From Escherichia phage UHP65: a stretch of DNA of 44,416 nt. A program made the translations under genes and the position numbers. The number at the start of each line of letters is the position of its first letter. Position 1 is the stretch's first letter. The DNA is taken from sequence record PQ511047.1. One strand, given 5' to 3'. The notes under the pieces are model-generated. The model searched no databases. It had not been told where the DNA came from and saw nothing but the letters and a program-made list of their open reading frames with translations. Of the stretch, positions 37,648 to 37,960 are shown piece after piece.

Positions 37648-37697
37648 CAGTCTCAGACGAGGGGGCCATTGACCCCCGTCTAGTCTGAAAGACTGGG
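37648..37697. repeat. ~50 bp hairpin element, copy 2 (near-identical to 10211-10260)
   Basis: cagtctcagacgagggggccattgacccccgtctagtctgaaagactgg. Confidence 0.8.
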
Positions 37698-37700
37698 GTG

Positions 37701-37960
37701 CTGTCCCGCTGTCCCGATCGGCTGAAAACCGCGGCAGCACTGGCGGGGACGGGTGCTGTCCCGTTTTGTCCCGCCTCGTGTTTGTCCCGCTTTCTGTCCC
37801 GTTTGGTTTATGCACGAAATCTGCATAGGTATGCACATTTACAGGGCGTGACAAAACGGGACGTCCCGCTTGTCCCGTTTTGAGTTTATGCAGTGGAAGT
37901 GAGTATATATGCAGTTTTACAGAGGCGGGACAAAACGGGACGTCCCGTTTGTCCCGCTTC
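37701..37960. repeat. array of GTCCCG(C/T) repeats with GGGACGTCCC palindromes and TTATGCA(G/C) motifs
   Basis: At least 9 direct and 4 inverted heptamer copies; ~380 bp non-coding gap between GT chaperone stop and tape measure start. Confidence 0.8.

Follow-up and report, generated by a model that had tools for sequence, protein, structure and literature searches.

Two related repeat arrays with a shared hairpin in the genome of Escherichia phage UHP65 are probably iteron modules for the phage helicase-primase

The genome of Escherichia phage UHP65 (PQ511047.1), analysed here as a single window of 44,416 nt, is a complete genome of the genus Dhillonvirus (HK578-like siphoviruses of E. coli) and shares about 92% identity and the same coordinates with phage jat (compared over 37400-38200). 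It contains two related intergenic regions, hereafter called regions A and B, in which an imperfect palindrome of about 50 nt is followed by arrays of short GTCCCG-type repeats. Region A adjoins the stop codon (10474) of a helicase-primase gene, whereas region B separates the gene of the T chaperone (stop codon 37962-37964) from the tape measure gene (ATG 37577-37579); the two are 27.4 kb apart (17 kb on the circle). Both regions are probably iteron arrays set in origin-type modules for the helicase-primase, region A being the ancestral origin and region B a second copy bound by the same initiator.

The two regions share one plan (Table 1). Read on the + strand of the window, the module is composed of the following elements: a TTGCCGT word, a TTATKCA word, the hairpin palindrome, a direct pair of TGTCCCG repeats, a spacer that contains an inverted repeat, a block of four direct repeats whose start-to-start distances are 10, 16 and 12 nt, and an A/T box. 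Indeed, the hairpin copies are 96% identical over 56 nt, copy A having one extra G, and a second homologous block (10316-10379 and 37751-37814, repeat family D2) is 86% identical; the 10/16/12-nt spacing of the four-repeat block of region B is exactly that found at 10323-10366 in region A. Hairpin B folds with -12.5 to -13.7 kcal/mol (z about -3). The word GTCCCGY occurs 27 times in the window, versus 14.3 +/- 3.3 in shuffled sequences, none of which reached 27; seven copies lie in 10266-10367 and 12 in 37703-37957, and one GTCCCGA brings region B to 13 GTCCCG cores, against seven in region A. Similarly, eight of the 13 TTATGCA words of the window lie within the two regions. The A/T box of region A holds a perfect inverted repeat, TTATGCA-N7-TGCATAA (10373-10393), together with TTGCATAACTATTC (10386-10399), and the corresponding block of region B (37808..37846) is a diverged copy of it. 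Region B retains the whole module, from the TTGCCGT word to this diverged block, and carries in addition two 79-nt units, each opening with a palindromic quartet of repeats (CGTGAC, CGGGAC / GTCCCG, GTCCCG at 37847-37877 in unit 1; CGGGAC, CGGGAC / GTCCCG, GTCCCG at 37926-37956 in unit 2, which abuts the T stop codon). Of the features by which iteron origins are recognised, clustered direct and inverted short repeats at roughly helical spacing are present in both regions, and an adjacent A/T-rich element is clear in region A (25% GC) and weak in region B (35-41% GC). The initial annotation of this DNA, made from the sequence alone, had described the repeated element of about 50 bp with its one-G difference, the GTCCCG(C/T) array after each copy, the position of one region after the primase gene and an unusual gap of about 380 bp between the GT chaperone and tape measure genes. 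All of these descriptions agree with the present analysis; the second hairpin copy ends at 37696 and the gap measures 382 nt.

Similar arrays are found beside related helicase-primase genes. Forty-one loci encoding relatives of the protein (37-99% identity) were collected and 40 were analysed; in 34 of these 40, a dense array of five to seven copies of one 7-mer directly follows the primase stop codon. The repeat word of Dhillonvirus is TGTCCCG. Salmonella phages SenTO17 and FSL SP-031 have TCTCCCC, a group related to Klebsiella phages has TTGCGAGT, loci L034, L043 and L046 share TGTCGGA, Enterobacter phage phiEap-2 and its relatives carry TTGTCCG, and TTATCCCT and GGGGATG are the words of L035 and L047, respectively. 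The elements follow one order across lineages: the words TTGYTGCCGT and TGAATAA/TTATKCA come first, then a long imperfect hairpin with two direct repeats behind it, a spacer containing one or more inverted repeats, a further three to four direct repeats and finally a box, CTGCATAACTATTCAC / (C)TGCATAACTATTCAC. Two of these elements are independent of the lineage: the TTGYTGCCGT box, which stands left of the hairpin in all lineages, and the terminal box, whose (C)TGCATAACTATTCAC form is often duplicated and whose 14-mer TTGCATAACTATTC is identical in the window and in SenTO17. The hairpin stems vary in sequence between lineages and retain 16-24 pairs, with z-scores of -2.4 to -5.6 against shuffled sequences for all 12 elements tested; the contig of L106 offers a clean case of compensation (AGACG/CGTCT to GGACG/CGTCC). 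A link between the hairpin and the DNA-binding system is provided by two lineages that have their own repeat word within the loop. Alignment with MAFFT and RNAalifold across lineages misaligned the hairpins and recovered only a 5-pair stem; each element was therefore folded separately.

When these sequences are compared, the repeat word is seen to change with the C-terminal winged helix of the helicase-primase and not with the core of the protein, as expected of the specificity module of an initiator. Indeed, the proteins of L043 and L042 are 99% identical over residues 1-640 and only 48% identical in the winged helix, and their words are TGTCGGA and TTGTCCG, respectively; likewise, those of L045 and L039 share 98% identity in the core and 43% in the winged helix, with the words TCTCCCC and TTGTCCG. 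Pairs with the same word have winged helices that are 56-99% identical (mean 75%), even where their cores are only 70-82% identical, whereas the mean is 37% and the maximum 66% for pairs with different words. The match between repeat word and binding domain that is typical of iteron origins is thus seen for seven words and seven winged-helix classes.

The helicase-primase (754 aa) is predicted to unite a primase of the archaeo-eukaryotic primase (AEP) type, a RepA-type helicase and a winged helix in a single polypeptide. After the AEP-fold primase (about residues 1-200), the predicted order of parts is zinc motif (C246...C279), AAA_25 RepA-type helicase (357-531), linker, winged helix and acidic tail. 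Pfam returned AAA_25 only (2.3e-19, residues 357-531), and a search of PDB sequences with the whole primase gave no significant match, that to RepA (1g8y) having an E value of 0.53. The N-terminal 345 residues were modelled with a predicted local distance difference test (pLDDT) score of 82.5. The best fold matches of this model were to the AEP domain of cyanophage S-2L PrimPol (E 2e-5) and to the catalytic domain of RSF1010 RepB' in complex with its initiator hairpin (3h25_A; E 7e-3, probability 0.98, template modelling score 0.46); the invariant residues D87, D89 and H120 and the Cys/His cluster 246-279 of the homologue alignment agree with the AEP fold. The last ~90 structured residues were modelled with the topology H-b-H-H-b-wing-b (pLDDT 80-92). 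Nearly all of the top fold matches listed for them are winged-helix proteins, mostly DNA binders, including the MarR family (MepR-DNA complex), histone H1 and the winged helix of ORC2. In the homologue alignment, no part of the protein varies more than this C-terminal domain, which, at the level of the predicted fold, would provide the DNA-binding domain expected of an iteron initiator.

The acidic tail occupies the last eight residues of the helicase-primase (10477-10500, minus strand) and reads (A)TD(D/E)DLxD; it is recognisable in 20 of 20 aligned homologues, D751 and L752 being invariant among them. It recalls the acidic tails through which gp4 and gp2.5 of phage T7 contact the DNA polymerase.

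Both regions are conserved within the genus. The set of relatives comprised 158 phage records sharing the region B query, and alignments and frame checks were made with 14 related Dhillonvirus genomes. Region B with its flanks (801-nt query) is covered to at least 80% in 150 of the 158 records and region A, also to at least 80%, in 142; the search of related phages for hairpin and array that the initial annotation had proposed thus recovered both regions in all 158 related records. Across the 14 genomes, the repeat cores of region B have a mean column identity of 0.946 and 76% invariant columns, versus 0.858 and 47% for the spacers (Mann-Whitney p = 5e-6), and each of the four direct repeats at 37758..37801 is kept in 13-14 of them, with spacers that vary. 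In region A too, the repeat columns are invariant and the spacers variable. The hairpin stems are invariant and the loops variable in both regions (CCATTGA, CCGCTGA, TGACAGA, TGCCAGA, GACAATA), the half-sites of the TTATGCA-N7-TGCATAA repeat of region A are invariant around a variable 7-nt spacer, and the palindromic quartets of region B are conserved. The loops of the A and B hairpins are often unlike within one genome; therefore, the copies are not simply homogenised by gene conversion, and strict concerted evolution is ruled out. An exact 22-mer of the hairpin is present twice in 13 IMG/VR genomes. No match to the module was found in 5,426 complete E. coli genomes or 72,556 plasmids, and there is therefore no sign that satellites or plasmids borrow it as an origin. 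A mobile repeat resembling a miniature inverted-repeat transposable element agrees neither with this result nor with the presence of exactly two copies per genome at fixed sites.

In this genome the gap of region B is filled exactly by an open reading frame (ORF) of the minus strand (37579..37962, 127 aa) that overlaps its neighbours by TAATG at both ends, and region B could be taken for a gene on this basis. The initial annotation had treated both regions as non-coding and overlooked this frame. In 14 of 14 relatives, however, the frame is closed by stop codons after 5-33 codons and the alignment of region B contains insertions and deletions of 1, 2, 10 and 11 nt, so that region B is, from these comparisons, non-coding. 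The predicted product matched no Pfam or PHROG family, and homology to the intergenic region A extends over most of the sequence. A coding function is refuted by the closure of the frame and has practically no probability.

Region B appears to be a derived duplication of the Dhillonvirus lineage, since the whole genomes of SenTO17 and phiEap-2 have one array each, beside the primase gene, and since the T frame of phiEap-2 overlaps the tape measure gene, with no gap between them. The same overlap is found in phage VerenaMeyer, which together with phiEap-2 makes up the outgroups with an annotated T frame. The duplication is old, because the L106 contig, whose primase is only 68% identical, also carries region B, with eleven repeat cores, an exact CTGCATAACTATTCA box, three GCAACCAA(T/G) words and a compensated hairpin. 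Its presence both in the Dhillonvirus records and in the divergent L106 indicates, as far as sequence comparison can, that region B is under selection. The region is flanked by CATTATGCAG (37577) and CATTATGCGG (37960), with TAATG at both junctions, which read CATTATGC(A/G)G; this suggests, by inference only, that region B was inserted through recombination at TTATGC words.

In L106, an extra gene of 126 codons with a signal-peptide-like N-terminus (4464-4844, minus strand of the locus) lies beside region B on the opposite strand, and a bidirectional terminator is found at 4440-4480. This gene is a moron beside the second array, as there is beside oriR of phage SPP1.

The closest functional precedent for the pair of regions is Bacillus phage SPP1, although only functional resemblance, and no family membership, is claimed for this and the following systems. 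The origins oriL and oriR of SPP1 share direct repeats and an A/T-rich unwinding element, and gp38 binds both (PMC6316719). The second of them, oriR, breaks an otherwise conserved order of late morphogenesis genes and stands beside moron genes, and gp38 bound there has been proposed to stall the replication fork and trigger the switch to concatemer synthesis (PMC6316719; PMC3485210). Like UHP65, SPP1 is a lytic siphovirus of about 44 kb with two similar modules of repeats and A/T-rich DNA, one at the initiator gene and one among late morphogenesis genes, and the extra gene of L106 is a further likeness. The initial annotation had stated that no known feature type explains both regions; two similar initiator-binding origins in one phage are just such a feature type (PMC6316719). 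In contrast to the regions described here, oriL is located inside gene 38 and not downstream of it, no conserved hairpin has been described for the SPP1 origins, and SPP1 divides the work among gp38 as a separate binder, a distinct helicase loader, the host primase and a DnaB-type helicase, where UHP65 has one predicted polypeptide.

Other systems resemble the protein or the module in part. Satellite phage P4 has two separated cis elements, ori and crr, which lie 4.5 kb apart and share one short repeat in direct and inverted orientation, crr containing two long direct repeat units. Its alpha protein carries primase, helicase and a C-terminal winged-helix origin binder in one polypeptide (PMC4234260), with a Toprim primase and an SF3 helicase. 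The domain order in a single chain and the two cis elements with one word are thus common to both systems, and the two 79-nt units of region B may be compared with the two long repeats of P4; however, the AEP fold and AAA_25 domain of the UHP65 protein make it an analogue and not a family member, and the search of PDB sequences with the helicase-primase gave no match to the solved P4 origin-binding domain. The origins of Staphylococcus aureus pathogenicity islands (SaPI) and phage-inducible chromosomal islands (PICI) lie immediately 3' of the pri-rep genes and consist of short iterons flanking an A/T-rich stretch, and iteron specificity is matched there to a variable region of the Rep helicase. 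Unlike the case of UHP65, primase and Rep are separate in most islands, and there is a single origin without a conserved hairpin. The IncQ plasmid RSF1010 has, at oriV, iterons, an A/T-rich segment and the ssiA/ssiB hairpins for a dedicated AEP-type primase, served by RepC, RepA and RepB' (PMC4234260). The combination of iterons, A/T segment and hairpin is the same here, the helicase belongs to the same Pfam family (AAA_25 / RepA), and the N-terminal model resembles RepB'. The differences are that RSF1010 distributes over three proteins the three activities predicted here for one chain; that it has two ssi hairpins on opposite strands, against one palindromic element per module; that its iterons are 20-mers, against a repeat core of 7-8 nt; and that it replicates by strand displacement with the host polymerase, whereas UHP65 has its own polymerase, Gp2.5-like SSB (a protein that binds single-stranded DNA) and exonuclease. 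Finally, ORF904 of the archaeal plasmid pRN1 unites AEP primase and helicase with a winged helix at the C-terminus, and the origin immediately downstream of its gene includes a stem-loop whose integrity is needed, and similar stem-loops after comparable phage genes (BIP-1) were remarked on by the pRN1 authors (PMC4234260). Unlike UHP65, pRN1 has no iterons, its helicase is of the SF3 type and its stem-loop is about 100 nt long.

The anatomy, conservation, non-coding status and word co-variation observed here, taken with the predicted protein folds, allow a mechanism to be proposed; we infer its binding, melting and priming steps and the role of region B by analogy with these systems. The C-terminal winged helix of the helicase-primase would bind the TGTCCCG repeats, the bound protomers would oligomerise and open the adjacent A/T box, and the RepA-type helicase domain of the same protein would be loaded. 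Once single-stranded, the palindrome would fold into a start signal for the AEP-type primase domain, like ssiA/ssiB of RSF1010. Region A, directly after the initiator gene and with its module in this place in most related lineages, would be the ancestral origin. Region B, found in Dhillonvirus-like phages only, would be bound by the same initiator and could be either a second origin or a firmly bound site at which forks arriving from region A are stalled and the change to concatemers is set off, as proposed for oriR of SPP1. The exonuclease and the Gp2.5-like annealing protein needed for the fork restart of an SPP1-type switch are both encoded by the phage. It is conceivable, though doubtful, that region B does not fire as an origin and is instead a dedicated checkpoint within the tail operon, where helicase-primase loaded on the 13 repeats and the palindromic quartets stalls the forks of region A, switches replication to concatemers and maybe gates transcription of the tape measure and tail-tip genes, with the palindrome as an ssi-type AEP start signal and initiation of the IncQ style carried out by one protein.

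Several observations weigh against the interpretation of regions A and B as origin modules. The A/T block of region B is much less A/T-rich (35-41% GC) than that of region A, and region B lacks the exact TTGCATAACTATTC box in most Dhillonviruses; therefore, region B may bind the initiator without firing. No DnaA box was found in either region and GC skew gave no origin signal, but skew follows gene orientation in this genome and is therefore uninformative as an origin marker. In six of the 40 primase loci, which belong to one lineage (L030-33, L036 and L038), the gene is not directly followed by an array; L038 has an origin-like module some 1.4 kb farther downstream (6250-6430, 6430-6490), beside six tandem copies of ATGCTGCC. 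The helicase-primase locus of VerenaMeyer_Bas76 (35% identical protein) has no array at all. The fold matches of the winged helix are generic (E 0.01-0.2), with no specific match to a known origin-binding domain in the fold search. Finally, the co-variation of repeat word and winged helix could reflect linkage alone, because the codons of the winged helix adjoin the array and a single recombination at the 3' end of the gene would carry both.

Among the alternatives, a role of the arrays as transcription operators must be considered. They would be bound by the small helix-turn-helix (HTH) protein whose gene (12749..13078) is upstream of the primase gene, or by the primase winged helix acting as a repressor or roadblock, and would time the minus-strand genes downstream. 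This would suit the location of both regions in a leftward transcription unit, with the same orientation to the downstream genes, the extended -10-like word TGATACAAT conserved between hairpin B and the tape measure start, the similarity of TTATGCA-N7-TGCATAA to the operator of a dimeric protein, the position of region B of L106 directly before a gene of the opposite strand, and the confident HTH_23 / Sigma70_r4 match of the small HTH protein. The latter, however, which the initial annotation had proposed as a binder, is found in Dhillonvirus loci only, being undetectable (tblastn E <= 0.1) in outgroup loci that retain the array architecture; it is therefore the poorer candidate. Moreover, its identity ranges from 61% to 99% within Dhillonvirus while the repeat word is constant, and this word tracks the primase winged helix instead. 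The other binder proposed at that stage, the product of 5405..6547, has weak matches to metallophosphatase families only. A sigma-70-type promoter is present in neither region: scans for sigma-70 promoters and intrinsic terminators called nothing in region A, and near region B the only promoter-like match is weak and starts in the T coding sequence (37990..37961). A hairpin with repeats and an A/T box beside an initiator gene is, furthermore, the pattern of an origin. Operator function as the explanation of the arrays is therefore unlikely, although regulation and origin function are compatible and do not exclude each other. The hairpin might instead act in RNA, as a terminator, attenuator, processing site or small RNA, the repeats being secondary. 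Its conservation through compensatory changes, its location at the end of the primase transcript and between the T and tape measure genes, and the slightly better folding of the + strand, with more G-T pairs in outgroups, would be in line with this. Against it, no U-tract follows the stem on either strand, and the terminator-like calls near region B are repeat palindromes and sites within the tape measure gene, not the hairpin; no Rfam covariance model matched at its gathering score in the whole window, which also contains no tRNA or tmRNA; both strands fold about equally, as expected of a DNA palindrome; and the repeat word stands in the loop in two lineages. A function at the RNA level is accordingly quite improbable.

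It is similarly hard to credit that region A is an origin and region B a passive relic of ancient illegitimate recombination between TTATGC words. The CATTATGCAG/CATTATGCGG flanks with TAATG at both junctions, the diverged A/T box of region B and the fact that outgroups do without this region all fit such an event. However, a relic would hardly be kept at the coverage observed in 150 of 158 records and also in the lineage with a 68% identical primase, with repeat cores and hairpin stems more conserved than spacers and loops, with the 10/16/12 spacing exactly preserved, and with a gain of extra palindromic quartets that are themselves conserved. Of the three candidates put forward in the initial annotation, iterons of a replication origin are favoured by the conserved module beside the primase gene and by the co-variation of the word, whereas sites of the packaging (pac) or partition type, recognised by the small terminase or a ParB-like protein, are very improbable. 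Repeated short words, direct and inverted, characterise pac and parS sites as well; nevertheless, region A is 5 kb away from the small terminase gene (4723..5373) and region B lies far from it, no partition protein was found among the 21 ORFs of the window scanned against Pfam or PHROGs, the array is tied to the primase, whose winged helix its word follows, and outgroups have one array only, beside the primase gene.

Table 1. Positions of the two regions, their elements and the proposed initiator in the UHP65 genome
Feature	Position	Strand	Remarks
Region A	9992..10473		intergenic, directly downstream of the helicase-primase gene; origin-like module
Hairpin, copy A	10211..10260		fold -14.3 kcal/mol, z -4.2
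Repeat array A	10266..10366		direct repeats at 10266, 10275, 10323, 10333, 10349 and 10361; inverted repeat at 10308-10313; 69% GC
A/T-rich box, region A	10368..10415		25% GC versus 54.6% for the genome; putative DNA-unwinding element
Helicase-primase	10474..12738	-	754 aa, proposed initiator; Pfam AAA_25, phrog_3228
C-terminal winged helix	10519..10743	-	about residues 666-740, predicted; proposed reader of TGTCCCG
Region B	37580..37961		non-coding gap of 382 nt; second origin-like module
TTGCCGT word	37604..37610	+	same word at 10178-10184 in region A
Hairpin, copy B	37648..37696		imperfect palindrome, CAGTCTCAGACGAGGGGG-CCATTGA-CCCCCGTCTAGTCTGAAAGACTGG
Two direct GTCCCG repeats, region B	37703..37716	+	starts at 37703 and 37711; 37711-37716 kept in 14/14 relatives
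Degenerate inverted repeat GGGGAC, region B	37745..37750	-	counterpart of the inverted CGGGAC at 10308-10313 in region A
Four direct TGTCCCG repeats, region B	37758..37801	+	start-to-start spacing 10, 16 and 12 nt
A/T-richer block, region B	37808..37846		TTATGCA-N7-TGCATAg and TATGCAC; 41% GC versus 54.6% for the genome
79-nt unit 1, region B	37845..37923	+	palindromic quartet, then TTATGCAG and ATATGCAG (family D11, inverted repeat I5)
79-nt unit 2 (start only), region B	37924..37959	+	92% identical to unit 1 (family D11)

Regions A and B both lie inside a long leftward transcription unit. The leftward genes start at about 13.1 kb, run through coordinate 1 and continue from 44.4 kb to 26 kb; they include the primase, lysis, packaging, head and tail genes; the rightward genes, from 13.3 to 26 kb, encode an exonuclease, the Gp2.5-like SSB, a DNA polymerase, a helicase and methyltransferases. 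On the minus strand, region A is followed by small genes and lysis genes, and region B by the tape measure and tail-tip genes. The word TGATACAAT, located at 37616-37624 on the minus strand, 37 nt upstream of the tape measure ATG, is invariant in 14/14 Dhillonvirus genomes and may serve as an internal promoter from which the tail genes are transcribed anew after region B.

Another word, GCAACCAAT, has 14 exact copies in the window (6710, 9306, 10016, 10047, 10137, 10419, 10454, 13269, 19852, 22794, 22811, 24719, 27435 and 43548) and 25 copies with at most one mismatch, versus 12 expected. Those checked are mostly intergenic, and five copies flank array A; the copies at 13269, 27435 and 43548 lie 4-24 nt upstream of a gene start, in the orientation of that gene. 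Guernseyvirinae relatives have CAGCCAACA in places matching GCAACCAAT, which could be a phage promoter, a regulator site or a translational operator. In some Dhillonviruses (loci L009, L013, L016 and L021), a duplication of about 54 nt of the GCAACCAAT unit, including the palindrome ATATGGGAATCCCCATAT, is found in region A beside the primase stop codon.

Furthermore, a terminator-like hairpin family, AAAAAGGGGCCGTGCGGCCCC, is present at 273-303, 25962-25992 and 38654-38684; one of these sites lies between convergent gene blocks and one between the genes of the major tail protein and the G chaperone. A tandem 54-nt repeat (16869-16976, 83% identical) within the Gp2.5-like SSB gene encodes an acidic/basic low-complexity stretch. 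Among the records matching region B, 'Campylobacter phage A144' (MG065648.1) is about 95% identical over this region to the present E. coli Dhillonvirus, and one record labelled Acinetobacter also matches; the host labels of both look doubtful.

The pair of regions has been annotated before: the GenBank record of Sodalis phage SO-1 (2009) already lists them as related repeat regions A and B, with the wording 'direct, inverted and palindromic repeat sequences; sequence similarity with region B'. No paper analysing the two regions was found in the searchable literature, nor a description of the replication origins of Dhillonviruses or Guernseyvirinae, and the repeats are unmentioned in the papers on YD-2008.s, vB_EcoS-B2, phiEap-2 and the Edwardsiella phages. 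An iteron origin accompanied by a second copy is a feature of a known kind; the link with the primase winged helix, the lineage-specific words and the conserved hairpin appear to be new.

Therapy collections and the BASEL reference set make use of Dhillonviruses and the related Guernseyvirinae, which are common phages of E. coli, Salmonella and Klebsiella. For these phages, the present analysis provides a testable candidate origin composed of hairpin, repeats and A/T box, names an initiator domain and predicts the recognition words of seven lineages. The natural specificity swaps, in which cores that are 98-99% identical carry different winged helices and words, offer material for studies of DNA reading and for orthogonal phage replicons. 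The copy in the tail operon, in turn, would be an E. coli system in which to address the role of a second origin in the late region, studied so far only in SPP1, and, if the checkpoint function considered above were true, it would couple late tail assembly to DNA replication.

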